From sequence record PZ452594.1: DNA of 64,000 nt, one strand, 5' to 3'. A program made the translations under genes and the position numbers. A model generated the notes under the pieces. That model did not search any database. It had not been told where the DNA came from and saw only the letters and a list, made by a program, of their open reading frames with translations. Below are positions 3,264-50,270 of this stretch, piece by piece (the first letter of the stretch is position 1; each line of letters begins with the position of its first letter). Origin of the DNA: a phage.

Positions 3264-3539
3264 TTAAATTGCTTTGAATTCTGATGTCTGTGATTCAAAG
3301 CGAATATCGCCTTTGATGACTAGCTCAGCATCAAGACCGAATACGACAATGATATGCGCTGAACCTGGATACAACGTGATGGCAACAGAATCCACCTGGT
3401 CTGGAAGCAAAGTATTCAATACATGAGTCACTTGAGCATGGATTCGAAGCTCAGCTGCATTATCAAGTTTTTCAAACATATTATTAGCGATAATTTGGCT
3501 AAACACTACTTCTACGATTTTAGAGTAAGTCGGAAACAT
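3264..3539 (-). CDS. hypothetical protein
   Basis: 91-aa ORF. Confidence 0.5.
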   Translation of the reverse strand: MFPTYSKIVEVVFSQIIANNMFEKLDNAAELRIHAQVTHVLNTLLPDQVDSVAITLYPGSAHIIVVFGLDAELVIKGDIRFESQTSEFKAI

Positions 3540-3541
3540 AT

Positions 3542-3734
3542 TTACCTCACATAATTTTCTTCAAGCCAATCAATAACATCCAAAGCGTTATCAAAAGTTG
3601 CGCCATCTACTTTGTCTTCTGTTTCATAATCAAGAACATCTAGGCCTACTCTTCCGTCAACAATAGGCCATAGACAAAATAGATATTTCTTTTCTTTTTC
3701 AATTTTATCACAAAGACGATAAATCTTTTCTAGG

Positions 3735-31864: not shown

Positions 31865-32325
31865 TAGTAAAGGTCCTCAGAGTAAAGTTCTTTTTCACTA
31901 CCACCACGTTCAATACGTACTTGTCCAGCGTAAGTTGCAATAATCATTGCTTCTTCACGTGTCCAATAATTACTATATTGGTCAATAAACCCTTGGTCAT
32001 CATCACAAACTTGCTGAGTAACTAATTGAGGTTTAACTACATCTAAAACTTCTGCCATATCTTTAGAATAATGACGAGCACCTGGAATAATAAGAGTTCG
32101 TCCATCTTTTAATTTAAAACGGTTGGCTGCACAGACAATTCGTCGTTGATACTTTTGGTTTTCATCCCAATATGCAGTCTGCCAACAGATTTCAGGAACT
32201 TCTTTCAGAATATCTTCTTCTGTACATTTATAACCATGCGCTTTAAATTTTTCAACAAGACTTTCTGGAGTCTCACGAGATAAAGGCACATTCAGCATTT
32301 TTAAACGATTAATAAATGGGTTCAT
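31864..32325 (-). CDS. hypothetical protein
   Basis: 153-aa ORF. Confidence 0.5.
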
Positions 32326-32651
32326 TTAAACCATCCTTTAATACGTTGCCACAAAGTTTTCTGTTGAGCTTTGTTAACACCAATTGAGCGAATAACTGGT
32401 TGAGATTCCTGGAATTCTTTATAATCAGCAAGGTAAATTTCGTAAGCTGCATCCGTAAATGAACTTATCGCTGCCATAAAATTATTGCGAATACCTACTG
32501 GAGCATCTTTACTTTCACGAATAATCATGTATTTACCAGTCTTAATCTTTACAATAGTTCCAAGATAAGCTCCATGGTACCAAATATCCCAACCCTCTTG
32601 TGTAGGTTCTGCACAACGACGAAGTTCATTAACAATTTCTAACTTGTTCAT
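32322..32651 (-). CDS. hypothetical protein
   Basis: 109-aa ORF. Confidence 0.5.
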
Positions 32652-32661
32652 TATTTATTCC

Positions 32662-44760: not shown

Positions 44761-45252
44761 TTATGCATAGCGAGCTTTGCTATAGTGTTTAATCCAACTT
44801 TCAGGAATGACTTTGTATGTTCCTAAAAATACCGCGTTGTATAACTTAACGCCATCTTCTACCCATTGATCAGTAATGTATGCACACATGGCGCGAGTAC
44901 GGTTAACAACCCCTTCCTCACCTTCAGTAAATTCAAACTCATAAGGAGCAACGAACTTAATAGCTTGACCGAGTTTCCACTTAAAGTCTACGCCTACATG
45001 CGAAGTATCAATCGTTTCAATTCCTTTAGCGGGAACAGCTTTCAAAAACGCAGGCTCAAGAAATTTCCATCGAACATAACCAAACTGAGGTTTAGACATT
45101 CCATCTTTAGGAATGATACGCACTTTTACTTCAGAATCTTCATCTTTAACACCATGTTTAAGCTGAATGCTTACGACTTCAACCAATTTTCCTGCTGCCT
45201 TAGAACGGGATTTATCAGATACACGAGCAATTTCACCGATATTAATATTCAT
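44761..45252 (-). CDS. motB: MotB-like protein
   Basis: 163-aa ORF; position and length as T4 MotB; C-terminal ITDQWVEDGVKLYNAV. Confidence 0.5.
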   Translation of the reverse strand: MNINIGEIARVSDKSRSKAAGKLVEVVSIQLKHGVKDEDSEVKVRIIPKDGMSKPQFGYVRWKFLEPAFLKAVPAKGIETIDTSHVGVDFKWKLGQAIKFVAPYEFEFTEGEEGVVNRTRAMCAYITDQWVEDGVKLYNAVFLGTYKVIPESWIKHYSKARYA

Positions 45253-45296: not shown

Positions 45297-45326
45297 ATTA
45301 TACTCTGGTCCCAAGAGTTTGTAAAC
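45297..45326 (-). promoter_or_regulatory. T4-type early promoter (GTTTAC-18-TATAAT)
   Basis: GTTTAC 45321-45326, TATAAT 45297-45302; inverted repeat GGACCA...TGGTCC around the -10. Confidence 0.6.
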
Positions 45327-45826
45327 TAGCTTACACGAACATTAATCACTGCGCTGCGAGGAACTACGGAGTACTCTCCAGCATGAACTACATTAAGAAG
45401 TTCAACGCCATCTTCAATCCACTGGTCAGTTACCCAACCGCCAATCGGATTCGCGAATGGACGACGAATATAAACTGCCTTACACAACAAATCAGTCGGG
45501 TCTTCAATTTTTTCAACTGGTGTTACATACATAGAAACTAAATCCATATCAATATGGGATTTTTCTTGTTCTTCTTTTTCAATTTCTGTCAATAAATTGA
45601 AATCTTCTTCATAGATGATGAATGATGATACCCTTCCATAATAGTTTCTAATTTCCATGTACACTGTACCAATGAGAATTCCGCTATTAACACTAATAAC
45701 AGTAAAAGGATATCCGCCAGTTGTACCAAGAAGTTCCCAAAACTTGCTATCAGTCGTATTCGACATTGTCTGGAAATCAATTTCAGATGGTTTTTTCATT
45801 TGATACGTAGTATTAATTTTAATCAT
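45326..45826 (-). CDS. MotB paralogue (C-terminal domain)
   Basis: 166 aa; C-terminus VTDQWIEDGVELLNVVHAGEYSVVPRS aligns with the upstream MotB-like ORF. Confidence 0.5.
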   Translation of the reverse strand: MIKINTTYQMKKPSEIDFQTMSNTTDSKFWELLGTTGGYPFTVISVNSGILIGTVYMEIRNYYGRVSSFIIYEEDFNLLTEIEKEEQEKSHIDMDLVSMYVTPVEKIEDPTDLLCKAVYIRRPFANPIGGWVTDQWIEDGVELLNVVHAGEYSVVPRSAVINVRVS

Positions 45827-45835
45827 AATTTTCCT

Positions 45836-46348
45836 TTAATCTAAGGTAATAAAGCCTTTTAATTCGGCATGCGATTTGCGAAACATTACTTGATGCCCAC
45901 CAATGATAACTTGATCATCTGGCACTTCATAAATCGCAATGTACATTCCACGATCTTTTAAGTCTTCACGCTCTTCTCGAGTAAACCATCTCATTATATC
46001 ATATTCACTAGCGAAAGCAAAATGATATAATGCAATAAACCACAATGGAATATAATTTTCAATTCGTGAATAATCTTTATTCCATTTAGTTTTAATAGCA
46101 TCATTAGCATTTTCAACTAATAACTTATCATCGTGTGGAATAGGAATACTTTCATGACTTTCATAATCATTGCTATGATGATGAAATGATGATGAATTAA
46201 TACCGCAAAATTTTAGCCAAGTTCGAGTTTTCATAGAATCAAATCCACGATAAGGAGTTGATTGAACACATAACTCTTGCCTAATTTTCATTATACCACT
46301 ATCATCATTTAATGCGCTAAACGATGATTCAACACGATAAATTTTCAT
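45836..46348 (-). CDS. hypothetical protein
   Basis: 170 aa from internal ATG with SD GAGGATAATAAA; the track start lies inside the promoter. Confidence 0.45.
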   Translation of the reverse strand: MKIYRVESSFSALNDDSGIMKIRQELCVQSTPYRGFDSMKTRTWLKFCGINSSSFHHHSNDYESHESIPIPHDDKLLVENANDAIKTKWNKDYSRIENYIPLWFIALYHFAFASEYDIMRWFTREEREDLKDRGMYIAIYEVPDDQVIIGGHQVMFRKSHAELKGFITLD

Positions 46349-46375
46349 TTTATTATCCTCAGTAGCTATGGTGTT

Positions 46376-46405
46376 ATAATACCACAACTAACCGAGGAAG
46401 TAAAC
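46376..46405 (-). promoter_or_regulatory. T4-type early promoter (GTTTAC-18-TATTAT)
   Basis: GTTTAC 46400-46405, -10 46376-46381. Confidence 0.5.
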
Positions 46406-46411
46406 AACTTT

Positions 46412-47095
46412 TTATCGTTTAGTTGGAAGAGATAGAGGATCGCATTCTTCCTCTGATGGAGCGTCTTCAAGACCCATAGCATAGCGCAAAGCATACTTCA
46501 TCATCAGGATGTCTTTCGCACAGTCATGAATAGAATCATGTGCAACGAATCCATCTAAAGTTCCCTTTGGAAGAGGACATGTGGTCATATCACGAACAAG
46601 TAGAAGTGCTTCAATTCTGGTACGAATATCACGCTGATTCCAGAATTTACACGGTTCTAACTTAAATGTATCAAGCTCATTCTCGGAAACGCCATTAAGA
46701 CGTTGAATATCGCGAATGAGATCGACTAAAATTGGAAAATCAAACGACATTCCACGGCACCAGCCTTGAGATTTCCAAGGATCGATATTATGTGCATTGA
46801 TGTAATCGTTGAATTTTGCAATACCATCAATGGTGCTTACATCTTCATCGGATGGTGCAATATTTTTTCGAGCTTCAGGAGACTGATTTTTCCACCATTC
46901 GATAGTGCTTTTAGTAAAAAGACGATGTCCTTTTTGGCTTTTTAAATCAAATTTGATTTTAATGCCACGTGAAACTAATTCATCAAATGTTTCAACAACT
47001 TCTGGGTTAGGGTCAAAGGCAATAACAGCCAAATCAATAACCGCTGCTTTTTCACCGCTTCCCATTGTTTCAAAATCTATAATAAAATCAAACAT
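46412..47095 (-). CDS. dexA: exonuclease A (DEDD 3'-5' exonuclease)
   Basis: 227 aa; N-terminal DxE motif (DFETMG) and later H/D motifs. Confidence 0.85.
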   Translation of the reverse strand: MFDFIIDFETMGSGEKAAVIDLAVIAFDPNPEVVETFDELVSRGIKIKFDLKSQKGHRLFTKSTIEWWKNQSPEARKNIAPSDEDVSTIDGIAKFNDYINAHNIDPWKSQGWCRGMSFDFPILVDLIRDIQRLNGVSENELDTFKLEPCKFWNQRDIRTRIEALLLVRDMTTCPLPKGTLDGFVAHDSIHDCAKDILMMKYALRYAMGLEDAPSEEECDPLSLPTKR

Positions 47096-47352
47096 TAAAT
47101 TTTCCTTGCTAAATCGCGAATTTGACCTACAGTATAGTCTTGAATATAAACTTTATTAATAGGTTCATCAATAAATTTTGCCATAGATTCAATATCTTTT
47201 TGCATCTCTTCAAGACTGTATATTATCTTTAAAGCTTTTTCGCGAATAGTAATATTTTCAGGACCTGGATTTTCTTTAATGACAGCTTTAACATTTGTCA
47301 TAAGAGATTTAAACTGGTACCAACTCAACTCAATCATTAATAATCGCCTCAT
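47095..47352 (-). CDS. hypothetical protein
   Basis: 85 aa; paralogous pattern with the next ORF (MR.L, QF, LEE, DY.G.I). Confidence 0.5.
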   Translation of the reverse strand: MRRLLMIELSWYQFKSLMTNVKAVIKENPGPENITIREKALKIIYSLEEMQKDIESMAKFIDEPINKVYIQDYTVGQIRDLARKI

Positions 47353-47590
47353 AAAGATAGCTAATTTCGCCTAAAACGTAATCATTGATTGTAACAGTTT
47401 TCACTTCACCACAAAAGAATTCTAACGCAATTAAATCTCGTTCAATTTCTTCTAATTGAAGCATCAACTTACTAGATTCAATTTTTACAGTTTCACGATT
47501 TTTACCATGAGCAATTTCATAAATTTCGCTAACTTTATCCTGAAGAAGATAAAACTGATCTTTAGTTATTTCCACGAATAGCTTCCTCAA
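47330..47590 (-). CDS. hypothetical protein
   Basis: 86-aa ORF. Confidence 0.5.
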   Translation of the reverse strand: MRKLFVEITKDQFYLLQDKVSEIYEIAHGKNRETVKIESSKLMLQLEEIERDLIALEFFCGEVKTVTINDYVLGEISYLYEAIIND

Positions 47591-47822
47591 ATTTAATTAG
47601 TAATTTACAGACACTTTCATCTAGTGTAATTACCGTATCTGTATTACTGTGATATGATTGTTTTTCAATTCGTTTAATTGCTAATATAGTATCACTTATA
47701 AGATAAAGCTTATGAAGGAGCTCAGCTCCTGTTACCATAACATCGAGATTATCTTGCTTATTAGTATGCTTCCTTATACCATCTATTAGACGATTTAAAT
47801 ATTTTGAATTGATGTTAATCAT
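47562..47822 (-). CDS. hypothetical protein
   Basis: 86-aa ORF. Confidence 0.5.
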   Translation of the reverse strand: MININSKYLNRLIDGIRKHTNKQDNLDVMVTGAELLHKLYLISDTILAIKRIEKQSYHSNTDTVITLDESVCKLLIKFEEAIRGNN

Positions 47823-47828
47823 ATATCC

Positions 47829-49148
47829 TCACACATAAAATACGTCATAACGACCACGGGTAACACCAACATAAAGAAGTTGTTGAGCTAGTTCAGCATC
47901 TGCATAATGAATACAAGGCGTATAAATGAAAGCACGGTCTACAGACATACCCTGAGCTTTATGGAATGTTGATGCAGGAAGTGCTTTCACTTTACTAAAC
48001 TGTGATTTAGCATCCCAAAAATCACTCCACGGAGCTTTTCCGCCTTTGTTCCAATTTTTATAAGTTTCTGCAGTTTTACCTAAAAATAGGTTAAACTTAT
48101 ATAGCTCTTCATCAGATGAAATTATTTTAATCTTTTCACTATAATATTCATCATCGCCGTAAGTTTCTACTGTTAAATCCCAATGACGAATTAAGTATTC
48201 TCCAGGAACACCACGGGCTTTAACAAACGTCGATGTATACTCTGCTTCTATAATACGAACTAATTGTCCGTTATTAAAAATAATTTCTGACACAGGCTTT
48301 CCATCAATTTTATATGTTTTAATTAATGGTTCCTGCATTACAATAATTTCACCTACAATAAAATCTTTATCAGTTTCAAAAATCTTTTTACGAATAATGC
48401 TATTTAACTTGTCAACAGATTTATTCGTAAATGCCATTACGCGATTTTCAAACAAATCATCTAGAGATTTGACGATTGAAAAATAATTTACCATAAAATC
48501 GCGTAAAGCGGTATCACCTGTAAATCCACGTACTCCATGCCCGTCAACAACTTTATCATAAATCCACTTACCGTTGCGAACATCAGTAGCTACATCAATA
48601 ATAGGAGCATTACTGCGTTTAACTTCAGTAAGTTCACACTGATAAAAATCTTTGTGTGTAAAGAATGGACTGATATAAGCAGTATTTTCTCCTGGATCAA
48701 CAGGTCTAATTTGCTTATTATCACCTATTCCAATTATAGTACACCAAGGTGGAATAGTTGAAAGCAGAATTTTAAATAGCTTTCTATCATACATTGACAC
48801 TTCGTCGCAGATTAATACCCTGCATTTAGCTAAATCTGGTACTTCCTTCTGTTCAAAAAGAACGTTTTCTTCATACGTAACTGGGTTAATTTTAAGAATA
48901 CTGTGAATAGTACTCGCTTCTTTCCCCGACAGTTTTGAAAGAATCTTTTTAGCTGCATGTGTAGGAGCTGCCAAAATGATACCAGTTTCGCCTGTTGATA
49001 TTAAAGCTTCAATGATGAACTTAGTAAGAGTAGTCTTACCAGTACCAGCAGGTCCATTAATAGTTACATGATGTTTCTTTTCTTTAATAGCCCTCATAAC
49101 GATGTTAAAGGCATTTTTCTGGCCTTCTGTCAAATCATCAAATGTCAT
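47829..49148 (-). CDS. dda: Dda DNA helicase (SF1)
   Basis: 439 aa; Walker A GPAGTGKTT and SF1 helicase motifs. Confidence 0.93.
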   Translation of the reverse strand: MTFDDLTEGQKNAFNIVMRAIKEKKHHVTINGPAGTGKTTLTKFIIEALISTGETGIILAAPTHAAKKILSKLSGKEASTIHSILKINPVTYEENVLFEQKEVPDLAKCRVLICDEVSMYDRKLFKILLSTIPPWCTIIGIGDNKQIRPVDPGENTAYISPFFTHKDFYQCELTEVKRSNAPIIDVATDVRNGKWIYDKVVDGHGVRGFTGDTALRDFMVNYFSIVKSLDDLFENRVMAFTNKSVDKLNSIIRKKIFETDKDFIVGEIIVMQEPLIKTYKIDGKPVSEIIFNNGQLVRIIEAEYTSTFVKARGVPGEYLIRHWDLTVETYGDDEYYSEKIKIISSDEELYKFNLFLGKTAETYKNWNKGGKAPWSDFWDAKSQFSKVKALPASTFHKAQGMSVDRAFIYTPCIHYADAELAQQLLYVGVTRGRYDVFYV

Positions 49149-49456
49149 CGGAAAGTCCCTGCAATTGGAATACTAACAATACGCCCAGTATCTAGAATTC
49201 GTTGATATAATCTTTGTGTGTCTATGTCAGGCTTAACATGTTTAACTTCTATTTTATTAAACCAAAATTTACGTGGAGTCTCAACTAATCTTGGAATTCC
49301 CTTACCTAAAGCTAGTCGATACTGCTCTTTAAGAGTAGTAAATACTTTATCAGCAATATTCCATTCAAAAAATACAGCAGGACGATGTTCATCAAGTGGA
49401 ACTGGCGCCGTAAATCCGTCTTTGTCTCGGTAAACTATCGCGTATACATAAACCAT
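49145..49456 (-). CDS. hypothetical protein (dda.1-like)
   Basis: 103-aa ORF. Confidence 0.5.
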   Translation of the reverse strand: MVYVYAIVYRDKDGFTAPVPLDEHRPAVFFEWNIADKVFTTLKEQYRLALGKGIPRLVETPRKFWFNKIEVKHVKPDIDTQRLYQRILDTGRIVSIPIAGTFR

Positions 49457-49457
49457 A

Positions 49458-50204
49458 TTATCCTCGGATAAGTTTAAAAATTGAACAATTTAGCGGATAT
49501 CCTCTTTTCAGTTTAAGTTTATCAATAAAAGACAAATTTTGATACCGCTCTACACCTTGAATAATTTTATCACACATATCATATTGCATTTCTGCTTCTG
49601 ACAACTTTTTCACAATTTTCCAATCCGAGCCTTTAAGAAGAACGTTCAGTTTAACAACTTCAGCGCCTTCTGCTATGCGAGAACCATCAATACGAGCTTT
49701 GAGTGCTATAATCCTTAGCTTAATGTCAGATGTCTGTTTTGATTTAGAAAGCTGAGAAATGTGTTCAATTCGATTTTCACGTTTTTTCTGTATAGCTTTA
49801 ATTTGATTATAAGTCTTTTTGATTTTAGCCCATTTCTTTTCATCTAAATTTAGTTTATGAACTTTTTTCGCAGATGAACGACCAATTCGCAAAGCAAATA
49901 AATCACGCTTTTCAATCAACTCTTCTAAAGTATAATCAGAACGAAATGTATTATACTTTTTCTTTACTGCAATAACATTCCCTTTAATGTATCCAACGTT
50001 ATTATCAAAACGTTCTAATGATAATTTCTCTCCTTCAATACGATTATCAAAAGGTTCTCCCGAGTAAGCGCAAACTTTTTGATCTAAAATGTTCTTAATG
50101 TAATTGAAGTCTAAGTTAAAATCTTTAGAACGTCTTTTTGCAGATGCCTGAGTATGCTCTAGACGACGTTTAATTTTACGAATTTGATTATTAGACAGCT
50201 TCAT
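49458..50204 (-). CDS. basic protein, tentatively Srd-like
   Basis: 248 aa, lysine/arginine-rich; assigned by position only. Confidence 0.35.
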   Translation of the reverse strand: MKLSNNQIRKIKRRLEHTQASAKRRSKDFNLDFNYIKNILDQKVCAYSGEPFDNRIEGEKLSLERFDNNVGYIKGNVIAVKKKYNTFRSDYTLEELIEKRDLFALRIGRSSAKKVHKLNLDEKKWAKIKKTYNQIKAIQKKRENRIEHISQLSKSKQTSDIKLRIIALKARIDGSRIAEGAEVVKLNVLLKGSDWKIVKKLSEAEMQYDMCDKIIQGVERYQNLSFIDKLKLKRGYPLNCSIFKLIRG

Positions 50205-50240: not shown

Positions 50241-50270
50241 ACTATAACATTTTTACTTTAACTTGTAAAC
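50241..50270 (-). promoter_or_regulatory. T4-type early promoter (GTTTAC-18-TATAGT)
   Basis: GTTTAC 50265-50270, -10 50241-50246. Confidence 0.45.

Follow-up and report, generated by a model that had tools for sequence, protein, structure and literature searches.

Gene content of the dda to dexA region

The window analysed here, a 64,000-nucleotide stretch of phage DNA (PZ452594.1), derives from a Tequatrovirus and is 99% identical to phage wV7. Its ORF listing contains three minus-strand ORFs of 85, 86 and 86 aa between dda and dexA, giving the minus-strand gene order dda, ORF3, dexA.2, dexA.1, dexA. The upstream cistron of the transcription unit is dda (47829–49148, minus strand), an ORF for the 439-aa Dda DNA helicase annotated as dda in the near-identical AR1 and T4, and the downstream cistron is dexA (46412–47095, minus strand), an ORF for the 227-aa exonuclease A according to the T4 and AR1 annotation. 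As listed, ORF1 occupies 47095–47352 (85 aa, ATG start), ORF2 47330–47590 (86 aa, TTG start) and ORF3 47562–47822 (86 aa, ATG start). Counted upward from dexA, the overlaps between neighbours measure 1, 23 and 29 nt, and a gap of 6 nt separates ORF3 from dda. The original prediction, made from the letters of the window, had placed three ORFs of nearly equal length with overlapping frames between dexA and dda at 47095–47822; these positions are exact, and the lengths (85–86 aa) and mutual overlaps of 23 and 29 nt agree with that description.

Start codons and translation signals

Inspection of the junctions suggests that two of the listed starts lie too far upstream. The true starts of DexA.1 and DexA.2 are likely five codons downstream, at ATG 47337 and GTG 47575, because Shine-Dalgarno sequences stand 8–9 nt upstream of these codons: GAGG at 47347–47350 for dexA.1, 9 nt from its ATG and within the last dexA.2 codons, and GAGGA at 47584–47588 for dexA.2, 8 nt from its GTG (both minus strand). 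No Shine-Dalgarno sequence was found by inspection for the longer ORFs starting at ATG 47352 and TTG 47590, and the T4 annotation uses the same downstream starts for both genes, including the GTG of DexA.2. With the likely starts corrected in this way, dexA.1 runs from its second ATG over 47095–47337 and dexA.2 over 47330–47575 (both minus strand), and the translated proteins are likely 80 (DexA.1), 81 (DexA.2) and 86 aa (ORF3) long. ORF3 itself is served by a GAGGA at 47826–47830 (minus strand) that overlaps the dda stop codon TGA (47829–47831) and leaves a spacer of 3–4 nt to the ATG at 47822, and dexA by an AAGGA at 47103–47107 (minus strand) within the last dexA.1 codons.

The positional pattern that the original prediction had read in the first two ORFs (MR.L...E, QF, LEE...D, DY.G.I) stands in part. 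QF, LEE...D and DY.G.I are conserved family-wide, but 'MR.L.' is probably untranslated and composed of the out-of-frame C-terminus of the upstream paralog together with a ribosome-binding site: the 'xTG AGG' codons behind 'MR' are the Shine-Dalgarno sequence itself, for example from TTG 47590 for dexA.2.

The last codons of each small gene hold the ribosome-binding site of the next cistron, the reading frames overlap, and the dexA.1 stop and dexA start share the sequence TAATG at 47093–47097. From these embedded sites and overlapping frames we infer that the small proteins are translated in a coupled fashion from one early/middle mRNA. A promoter and terminator scan found nothing resembling a terminator on the region's coding strand, and its promoter-like matches there were no commoner than in shuffled sequence; Rfam returned no RNA family between 44000 and 51000. 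In T4, the genes from dda.1 to dexA.1 are transcribed from one start site that lies upstream of dda.1 (bioRxiv 2024.04.04.588121).

DexA.1 and DexA.2

Comparison with T4, which the original prediction had proposed as a check, identifies ORF1 as the ortholog of DexA.1 (UniProt P32285, Y00G; ~94% identity, pI 6.25 in the window) and ORF2 as that of DexA.2 (UniProt P39418, Y00H; 96% identity, pI 4.4). Position, strand, overlaps and likely starts are the same in both phages, and the T4 locus differs in lacking the third gene of the window. Both ORFs match phrog_1700 (E=1.4e-43 for ORF1, E=6.4e-49 for ORF2), and PF26837 is the precomputed Pfam label on every one of their near-identical homologs. 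The two proteins align pairwise over 83 residues with 29% identity and 53% positives (BLASTP, E=3e-9), far beyond chance, so the suspicion that at least two of the three ORFs are paralogous is confirmed by formal alignment; ORF3 is excepted at the pairwise level. This kinship is already recorded in databases (PHROG 1700, PF26837), and the new element here is the membership of ORF3 alone.

Products of both T4 genes have been seen at the RNA and the protein level (PMC9697503 supplement), and both proteins are soluble on expression (PMC8076793); a literature search found no published function for dexA.1 or dexA.2. Many public records label the ORFs of this array 'exonuclease', a name not backed by any Pfam or NCBIfam family at threshold and set on three-helix bundles of 80–86 aa, which appears to have spread from the name of the adjacent gene, dexA. 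The RefSeq label 'dextranase' for DexA.2 probably reflects a confusion of gene names, as this protein of only 81 aa has no glycoside hydrolase domain and no Pfam match. Both widespread labels are therefore unsupported.

Domain searches with the three ORFs were otherwise uninformative, with nothing in local Pfam-A beyond a sub-threshold VHS match, only sub-threshold noise in NCBIfam (ESAT-6, MinE and a P-loop family) and no meaningful relative in a sequence-profile search of the PDB. Word-indexed homolog searches returned only near-identical Tequatrovirus sequences. A HMMER profile search of the full library with DexA.1 and DexA.2 gave 10 matches among 1.84 billion representatives, with no distant cellular relative or informative domain fusion, and on these matches the family does not extend beyond T-even-type phages.

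Kinship with helix-turn-helix proteins was considered and rejected: the DexA proteins end ~12 residues past the matched motif, where the recognition helix would be needed, no such family was matched in Pfam-A or NCBIfam, and DexA.2 is strongly acidic. The match to P0107, a 352-aa protein of helix-turn-helix-like repeats (E=1.8e-4), covers a partial motif, its 'ADYIAGEL' falling on the junction of strand 2 and helix 3. Weak family-HMM matches elsewhere in the window, at 32325–32654 (E=0.02) and 3267–3560 (E=0.04), were judged to be chance.

Evidence for ORF3 as a remote third member

ORF3 (47562–47822, minus strand; pI 7.9) corresponds to AR1_017 and belongs to phrog_4967 (E=8e-59), which PHROG keeps apart as a family without known function, with orthologs such as those of AR1 and wV7; the link to DexA.1/DexA.2 is drawn here. 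This ORF3 family comprises 309 Tequatrovirus records that are 90–100% identical, and ~60% of the Tequatrovirus genomes in the collection carry it. BLASTP detected no pairwise similarity of ORF3 to ORF1 or ORF2 (E=21–22), and ORF3 has no match to phrog_1700. The pairwise and profile alignments that had been suggested as a check thus divide: ORF1 and ORF2 are joined directly, and ORF3 is joined to the family at the profile level, through phrog_5263 (E=1.8e-5, residues 1–81).

The phrog_5263 genes, whose profile both ORF3 and DexA.2 match, occur as single copies in Gaprivervirus (VR7, P8), Karamvirus (PG7, CC31), Klebsiella T4-like phages and Moonvirus (KM16), and resemble the window genes in slot, length (76–84 aa) and predicted fold. 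ORF3 departs from them by an insertion of 6 residues behind helix 2 and by the loss of most of the DY..G.I motif, in whose place it reads LDESVCKLL. An HMM built from five single-copy genes of other genera ranked DexA.2 (1.2e-9), DexA.1 (2.4e-6) and ORF3 (6.3e-5) as the top three among 359 stop-to-stop ORFs of the window, followed by the next ORF at 0.043, and none of 5000 composition-preserving shuffles of ORF3 reached its score. Alignment with hhalign likewise related ORF3 to the phrog_5263-type genes (90.5%, E=1.4e-6, 76 columns), and gave no significant result against the phrog_1700-type genes.

Structure prediction, also put forward in the original prediction, points the same way. AF2 models of DexA.1 (pLDDT 93.8; E2-5 H6-22 H26-56 E62-65 H67-79) and of ORF3 from its own alignment only (pLDDT 85.6; E2-5 H6-22 H26-52 E64-67 H69-84) share a strand-helix-helix-strand-helix layout. 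In Foldseek searches of the viral structure library BFVD, the two models reciprocally retrieve family models, each other's type included, with TM values of 0.69–0.88, and DexA.2 is represented by the library model of phage BECP11 DexA.2 matched in this way; for the shared fold the reciprocal TM values are 0.69–0.78. DexA.1, DexA.2 and ORF3 are thus predicted to have one fold, in which a short strand is followed by two long helices, a second short strand that pairs with the first, and a third helix. Each small gene would encode a three-helix bundle of ~9–10 kDa, and the predicted models display no catalytic or DNA-binding motif.

Taken with the link through genes of other genera, this fold supports ORF3 as a remote third member of the DexA.1/DexA.2 family, by a transitive connection; the idea of a small tandem family, first proposed with at least two paralogous members, is thereby extended to all three ORFs. 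That ORF3 is instead a small helical orphan, placed in this slot without kinship to the family and alike only through a convergent three-helix-bundle shape, would accord with the pairwise and subgroup alignments, the lack of a precomputed Pfam label on its homologs, its absence at E≤0.001 from the whole-library search with DexA.1 and DexA.2 and the commonness of such bundles, but we regard it as improbable given that the phrog_5263 match is end-to-end and stronger than that of the genuine member Bp7 gp116 (4.7e-4), that the HMM rank and shuffles speak for kinship, that the strand and helix boundaries are those of DexA.1, that the 17 viral-library matches directly below ORF3's own type include 12 with a named organism, all 12 from T4-like phages, and that the C-termini FEEAIRGNN* (ORF3) and YEAIIND* (DexA.2) are parallel, with the ribosome-binding site of the next gene embedded at the same place.

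Copy number and origin of the array

The number of copies in the dda–dexA slot is 0, 1, 2 or 3 among relatives. RB69, in which dda and dexA are only 9 nt apart, has none; Bp7, WG01, P8, VR7, PG7, a Klebsiella phage and KM16 have one in the same slot; T4-type phages have two; and JE01 lacks dexA.1. Family HMMs and hhalign gave no sequence-level support to the small ORFs lying close to dda or dexA in RB49, in Acinetobacter phage phi1_092060 and in Aeromonas phage Aeh1, whose dexA does not adjoin dda. The proteins of Acinetobacter and Aeromonas phages that Foldseek matched are therefore not placed in their genomes by this comparison.

Comparison of junctions indicates that T4 is a deletion derivative that lost ORF3 with a 232-nt segment (47598–47829, minus strand). 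The deletion is bounded by TGA microhomology, and T4, RB55, e11/2 and SG1 share the junction TTTTATGTATGATTAAATTTGAGG. In these four phages the last 36 nt of ORF3 (nt 226–261 of the gene; 47562–47597, minus strand), comprising the end of helix 3 and the dexA.2 ribosome-binding site, are kept as a relic at 100% identity (blastn). Where genes meet, two short repeats, TAATG and TGA, mark the exact sites of the natural deletions. Estimates of dN/dS are 0.23 for DexA.1, 0.15 for DexA.2, 0.16 for ORF3 and 0.02 for dexA, which indicates purifying selection on all three small genes; at the protein level these evolve ~10 times faster than dexA, and the small proteins differ by 10–15% among the same phages in which DexA is nearly invariant.

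Together, the three small cistrons form an array of ancient paralogs within the dda-to-dexA operon. Judged from its sequence, the duplication is ancient, because no DNA-level repeat is left within the array, where only short chance matches were found, and because DexA.1 shares more with the single-copy gene of Dhakavirus (40–44%, E=1e-17 to 1e-19) than with DexA.2 beside it (29%). The same two observations could also mean that the array was stacked rather than duplicated in place. In that case, mixed infections would have brought together diverged orthologs of different T-even lineages, and unequal or illegitimate recombination would have joined them at the gene junctions that they share. As stacking would have it, the nearest relatives of ORF3 and DexA.2 are single-copy genes of the phrog_5263 type in other genera, and the deletions at TAATG and TGA imply that gene junctions recombine. 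However, an old duplication in place followed by differential loss in other genera predicts the same pattern, and no donor lineage with a close relative of ORF3 appeared in the collections searched, so that we consider stacking a tentative possibility, less probable than not. It concerns the origin of the array only and fits either of the functional readings below.

Inferred function

We posit, as the best explanation and with a probability of roughly 0.45, that this array of ancient paralogs encodes binders of host or host-defence proteins. The small proteins would act as non-enzymatic, stoichiometric partners of such targets in host takeover or counter-defence, the three copies would address different or variant targets, and any one copy could be dispensable, depending on the host. 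The paralogs have come to differ in charge (pI 4.4, 6.25 and 7.9) and at that end of the bundle which helix 1, the loop and helix 2 make up, and different or variant targets may follow from these differences. An unnamed E. coli protein of ~9 kDa, host-derived by mass spectrometry, accompanied His-tagged DexA.1 (Y00G) in a single reported co-elution (PMC8076793). The approximately tenfold faster protein evolution relative to dexA and the T-even-only distribution were also counted in favour of host binding. On the other side, the dN/dS values lie well below 1 and so give no sign of positive selection, and the strict dda–dexA position and overlapping frames could mean a role with those enzymes. 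By analogy only, and from general knowledge, the window proteins may be likened to the early takeover and counter-defence proteins Dmd, Arn and AsiA of T4 in being small, phage-restricted, early/middle, dispensable in the laboratory and variable among relatives; unlike in these respects, there is no relationship of sequence or fold between the two sets.

A role with the flanking enzymes would make the small proteins accessory or regulatory subunits that are not host-directed, which might, for example, modulate the dimer/tetramer switch of DexA, influence whether it acts on host or on 5hmC phage DNA, or adapt the Dda helicase. At least six Tevenvirinae genera keep the dda–dexA slot, but gene order in T4-like phages is generally conserved regardless of function. 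The TAATG overlap of dexA.1 with dexA and the overlaps at other junctions make production look coupled, yet RB69 manages with no small gene, Aeh1 keeps dexA away from dda, and JE01 and T4 do without dexA.1 and ORF3, respectively; nor does the near-invariance of DexA sit well with the divergence of its supposed partners. The quaternary switch of DexA is regulated, and the enzyme is toxic or a threat to the phage itself (PMC12153337); the abstract of that study describes the dimer/tetramer switch and the choice of substrate without mention of any accessory protein. We think an accessory role unlikely.

Returning to host binding, a bolder version, which we likewise hold to be unlikely, is that the dda–dexA slot carries copy-number-polymorphic inhibitors or decoys, each directed against a different host nucleic-acid-associated protein or defence nuclease. 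One candidate class of target would be the DexA-like HREX exonucleases of bacteria, which act against 5hmC DNA. If this version were true, gains and losses of copies from 0 to 3 would track the hosts that a phage has met, and the loss of ORF3 would have cost the laboratory phage T4 a counter-defence gene.

The three-gene array is real but mostly ordinary, and it has little import alone: two of its three genes are long-annotated T4 genes whose kinship family databases already hold. What it adds is that ORF3 is now tied to the DexA.1/DexA.2 family, and that the natural variants with 0, 1, 2 or 3 copies, together with the reported host protein that co-elutes with DexA.1, offer a cheap genetic handle on the role of this family of early proteins.

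Arrangement of the dda–dexA interval

Three overlapping small genes lie on the minus strand between the exonuclease A gene dexA (46412–47095, minus) and the Dda DNA helicase gene dda (47829–49148, minus), namely ORF1 (47095–47352, 85 aa, start ATG), ORF2 (47330–47590, 86 aa, start TTG) and ORF3 (47562–47822, 86 aa, start ATG). The original prediction had placed three such frames here, and its coordinates, near-equal lengths and overlaps all match the ORF listing. Megablast of positions 46300–49300 matched 654 phage records, the best being Escherichia phage wV7 and O157 typing phage 7 (99.0% identical, full length), with AR1 at 98.4%, on which basis we assign the window to the T4-like genus Tequatrovirus. 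As annotated in AR1 and T4, the genes run on one strand in the order srd, dda.1, dda, the small genes, dexA, motB.2, motB.1 and motB. A second neighbouring paralog pair is formed by the MotB ortholog (44761–45252, minus, 163 aa) and an adjoining 166-aa ORF (45326–45826, minus; motB.1 by AR1 naming), which have a C-terminal 29-residue block in common (55% identity, E=9e-10). Because T4 motB.1 encodes only 119 aa, the motB.1 slot of the window is also unlike that of T4.

DexA.1 and DexA.2

Comparison with T4 identifies ORF1 and ORF2 as the orthologs of dexA.1 and dexA.2, as the T4 proteins (MIELSWYQFKSL..., 80 aa, and VEITKDQFYLLQ..., 81 aa) are ORF1 and ORF2 without their first five codons. That at least two of the three frames are paralogous, as originally proposed, is borne out by pairwise BLASTP of ORF1 against ORF2 (29% identity, 53% positives, 83 residues, E=3e-9). 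Both match phrog_1700 (ORF1 E=1.4e-43, ORF2 E=6.4e-49) and all their close homologs in a 5.8-billion-protein collection carry the precomputed Pfam label PF26837, so this paralogy is real but already on record in databases. A local Pfam copy, which lacks the PF26837 model, returned no family for the ORFs.

The phrog_1700 profile spans 160 positions, with DexA.2 covering 1–80 and DexA.1 covering 77–159. In phage ime09 dexA.2 and dexA.1 are fused into a 159-aa ORF by a 1-nt deletion just 5' of the dexA.2 stop (BFVD entry G1FHL1; locus L028, about 1690), a fusion that may exist in nature or may stem from a sequencing mistake. The AR1 dexA.2 is annotated as a 44-aa fragment from an internal ATG (L001 2531–2665), with the full 81-aa frame intact (tblastn, 100% coverage); these 44 C-terminal residues of DexA.2 are also what the 44-position profile phrog_28922 covers, and its origin may lie in truncated annotations of this kind. 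Four near-identical DexA.2/DexA.1 proteins (P0005, P0013, P0034 and P0102) come from entries assigned to Enterococcus faecalis, Salmonella, Shigella and E. coli, which looks like T4-like phage DNA within bacterial assemblies. One of them, P0102, is 141 aa long, lies on a 639-nt contig and joins PF02384 (N-6 DNA methylase) to PF26837; a chimera or misassembly is the probable explanation.

Records matching 47095–47590 are widely labelled 'exonuclease' or, in RefSeq, 'dextranase' and, in one case from T6, 'tail sheath stabilizer and completion protein'. We found no support for the common exonuclease and dextranase labels; these are 80–81 aa proteins without any such domain, and a mix-up over gene names seems to have spread from record to record.

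A remote third paralog

The proposal of a small tandemly duplicated family holds pairwise for ORF1 and ORF2 and, through profiles, for ORF3, which has no BLASTP similarity to either (E=21–22). ORF3, absent from T4, belongs to phrog_4967 (E=8e-59) and has a second, full-length match in phrog_5263 (residues 1–81 on profile positions 1–74 of 77, E=1.8e-5), a profile also matched by ORF2 (2e-7). In other genera phrog_5263 is the lone small gene between dda and dexA, found as a single copy in Yersinia phage P8 and VR7 (Gaprivervirus), PG7 (Karamvirus) and a Klebsiella T4-like phage (E=1e-28 to 3e-32 against the profile). The single-copy gene of Dhakavirus, Bp7 gp116, is a clear DexA.1 relative (40%, E=2e-17) and yet matches phrog_5263 at only 4.7e-4, more weakly than does ORF3.

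An independent HMM built from five genes (P8, an IMG/VR variant, PG7, the Klebsiella phage and Moonvirus KM16) and containing zero Tequatrovirus sequences was run against all 359 stop-to-stop ORFs of at least 50 aa in the six frames of the window. Its top three hits were DexA.2 (1.2e-9), DexA.1 (2.4e-6) and ORF3 (6.3e-5, 17.7 bits), the fourth ORF reaching only 0.043, and none of 5000 composition-preserving shuffles of ORF3 scored above 13.5 bits. With hhalign, the ORF3 alignment matched the five genes at 90.5% (E=1.4e-6; 76 columns, 29% identity, one 6-residue insertion in ORF3), and the five genes matched the DexA.1/DexA.2/Dhakavirus group at 97.2% (E=3.2e-11). Since ORF3 against that group directly was not significant (0.8%, E=0.072), the link between ORF3 and DexA.1/DexA.2 is transitive, passing through the five genes.

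Structure prediction points the same way. The AlphaFold2 models of DexA.1 (pLDDT 93.8, pTM 0.80; E2–5, H6–22, H26–56, E62–65, H67–79), from an alignment with DexA.1 and DexA.2 rows, and of ORF3 (pLDDT 85.6; E2–5, H6–22, H26–52, E64–67, H69–84), from its own orthologs only (at least 90% identity), share one predicted layout. In the viral library BFVD, Foldseek placed ORF3's own ortholog first, with further matches in Yersinia phage fHe-Yen9-01 (76 aa, TM 0.79/0.88), Enterobacter phage CC31 (80 aa, TM 0.71/0.76), phage BECP11 (an 81-aa entry labelled 'Exonuclease' that agrees with this phage's DexA.2 homolog of 81 aa; TM 0.69/0.73) and T4-like phages of Acinetobacter, Aeromonas, Erwinia and Cronobacter. 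The DexA.1 model retrieved the same set plus an ORF3-type protein of Shigella phage Sf25 (TM 0.78/0.73, probability 1.00). Profiles and models together indicate that ORF3 is a new, remote member of the family, listed separately by PHROG and without a precomputed Pfam label.

Start codons and gene overlaps

Shine-Dalgarno-like sequences on the minus strand precede the downstream starts, with GAGGA (47588–47584) 8 nt upstream of GTG 47575 in dexA.2 and GAGG (47350–47347) 9 nt upstream of ATG 47337 in dexA.1. As only A+T-rich sequence lies upstream of the longer starts (TTG 47590 and ATG 47352), and the annotated T4 starts are the downstream ones, the 'TTG AGG' and 'ATG AGG' codons read as 'MR' are Shine-Dalgarno sequences. 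The same nucleotides encode the C-terminus of the upstream gene (...KFEEAIRGNN* in ORF3, ...LYEAIIND* in DexA.2). The N-terminal 'MR.L' resemblance noted originally therefore reflects real DNA-level homology, but of the C-termini of the upstream paralogs rather than of protein N-termini. From the downstream starts, ORF3/dexA.2 overlap by 14 nt, dexA.2/dexA.1 by 8 nt (ATGATTGA) and dexA.1/dexA by 1 nt (TAATG), and the last codons of each small gene hold the ribosome-binding site of the next cistron.

Copy number and origin of the array

Copy number ranges from zero in RB69 (dda–dexA spacing 9 nt), through one in Dhakavirus, Gaprivervirus, Karamvirus, Klebsiella phages and Moonvirus, and two in T4, RB55, e11/2 and SG1, to three in the window, wV7 (99% identity, full length) and, by annotation or blastn, AR1, ime09 (dexA.2/dexA.1 fused), ADUt, sb3 and IMG/VR contigs. 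A frameshift breaks the lone member in one Proteus phage, ABTNLPp2 (L010 1904–2138), into fragments of 38 aa and 65 aa, so that it represents a pseudogene unless the frameshift is a sequencing error. The junction TTTTATGTATGATTAAATTTGAGG is common to all four T4-type phages, in each of which the final 36 nt of ORF3 survive at 100% identity; this remnant encodes the end of ORF3 helix 3, a helix that lines up with the family's own helix 3. Because of this shared junction and remnant, the T4 arrangement is best taken as derived, through a deletion of 232 nt (window 47598–47829, TGA microhomology), rather than ancestral.

JE01 has ORF3 and dexA.2 (L030 1148–1393 and 1386 onward), with dexA.1 precisely deleted between TAATG repeats at two gene junctions; its DexA.2 ends ...AIINV, an ending found in several protein clusters. 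At 80% identity or more, the phage collection holds 497 records with DexA.2, 480 with DexA.1 and 309 with ORF3, and from the first two counts about 17 Tequatrovirus records may be of the JE01 type.

No DNA-level repeat is left within the array and DexA.1 is nearer to the Dhakavirus gene than to DexA.2, suggesting either that the duplication is old or that the array was built from diverged orthologs stacked by recombination. As Aeh1, Henu6, Cronus and phiAS5 each gave two or three Foldseek matches, multi-copy states may recur in other phages. The dda–dexA slot also holds two small ORFs in RB49 (L027 2974–3385) and four in Acinetobacter phage phi1_092060 (L034 2921–3999), with no detectable sequence similarity to the DexA.1/DexA.2 family; Foldseek matches to Acinetobacter phage proteins suggest that some of these may share its fold.

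Expression, selection and possible function

Published experiments support these as real genes. The stretch from dda.1 through dexA.1 appears to be transcribed from one start site upstream of dda.1 (bioRxiv 2024.04.04.588121), and for T4 DexA.1 and DexA.2 both RNA (early) and protein (middle) were detected (PMC9697503 supplement). DexA.1 and DexA.2 are both soluble on expression in E. coli (PMC8076793), and during T4 infection DexA.2 was found joined to cGAS at Lys5 by a CBASS Cap2 enzyme (PMC10097602). In a simple scan of the region, promoter-like matches were no commoner than in shuffles and no terminator-like site was found on the coding strand. The best sigma-70-like match of the region (50241–50269, minus; TTTACA, 17 nt, TATAGT, upstream TG) sits just upstream of the srd ortholog (49458–50204), as expected of a T4 early promoter.

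Across 8–12 distinct Tequatrovirus alleles, pooled Nei-Gojobori dN/dS was 0.16 for ORF3, 0.15 for DexA.2 and 0.23 for DexA.1. The three small genes are under purifying selection and change at the protein level about ten times faster than the neighbouring enzyme DexA. DexA.1/DexA.2 alleles vary chiefly where helix 1 ends, in the loop and where helix 2 begins. Conservation is seen in the LEEI..D segment, in strand 2 and at the beginning of helix 3 (DY..G.I). Predicted pI values are 6.25 (DexA.1), 4.44 (DexA.2) and 7.88 (ORF3), and we detected no enzymatic or DNA-binding feature in the three proteins.

In the main rival reading of function the small proteins would be accessory to Dda or DexA, in keeping with the conserved slot between dda and dexA and the overlapping reading frames; it is weakened by RB69, JE01, T4 and Aeh1, and by the near-invariance of DexA (dN/dS 0.02). 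We tentatively favour a mechanism in which the small proteins would bind host or host-defence proteins stoichiometrically, because the family is small, phage-restricted, early-to-middle expressed, individually dispensable and relatively fast-evolving, although we hold this specific mechanism to be somewhat doubtful. The sole experimental hint comes from His-tagged DexA.1, with which an unnamed protein of ~9 kDa co-eluted that mass spectrometry assigned to E. coli (PMC8076793).

ORF1 and ORF2 are known genes of a known family. To the locus anatomy and three-way paralogy as a whole we assign a probability of roughly 85–90%, and regard the three-gene finding as real, tidy and modest.
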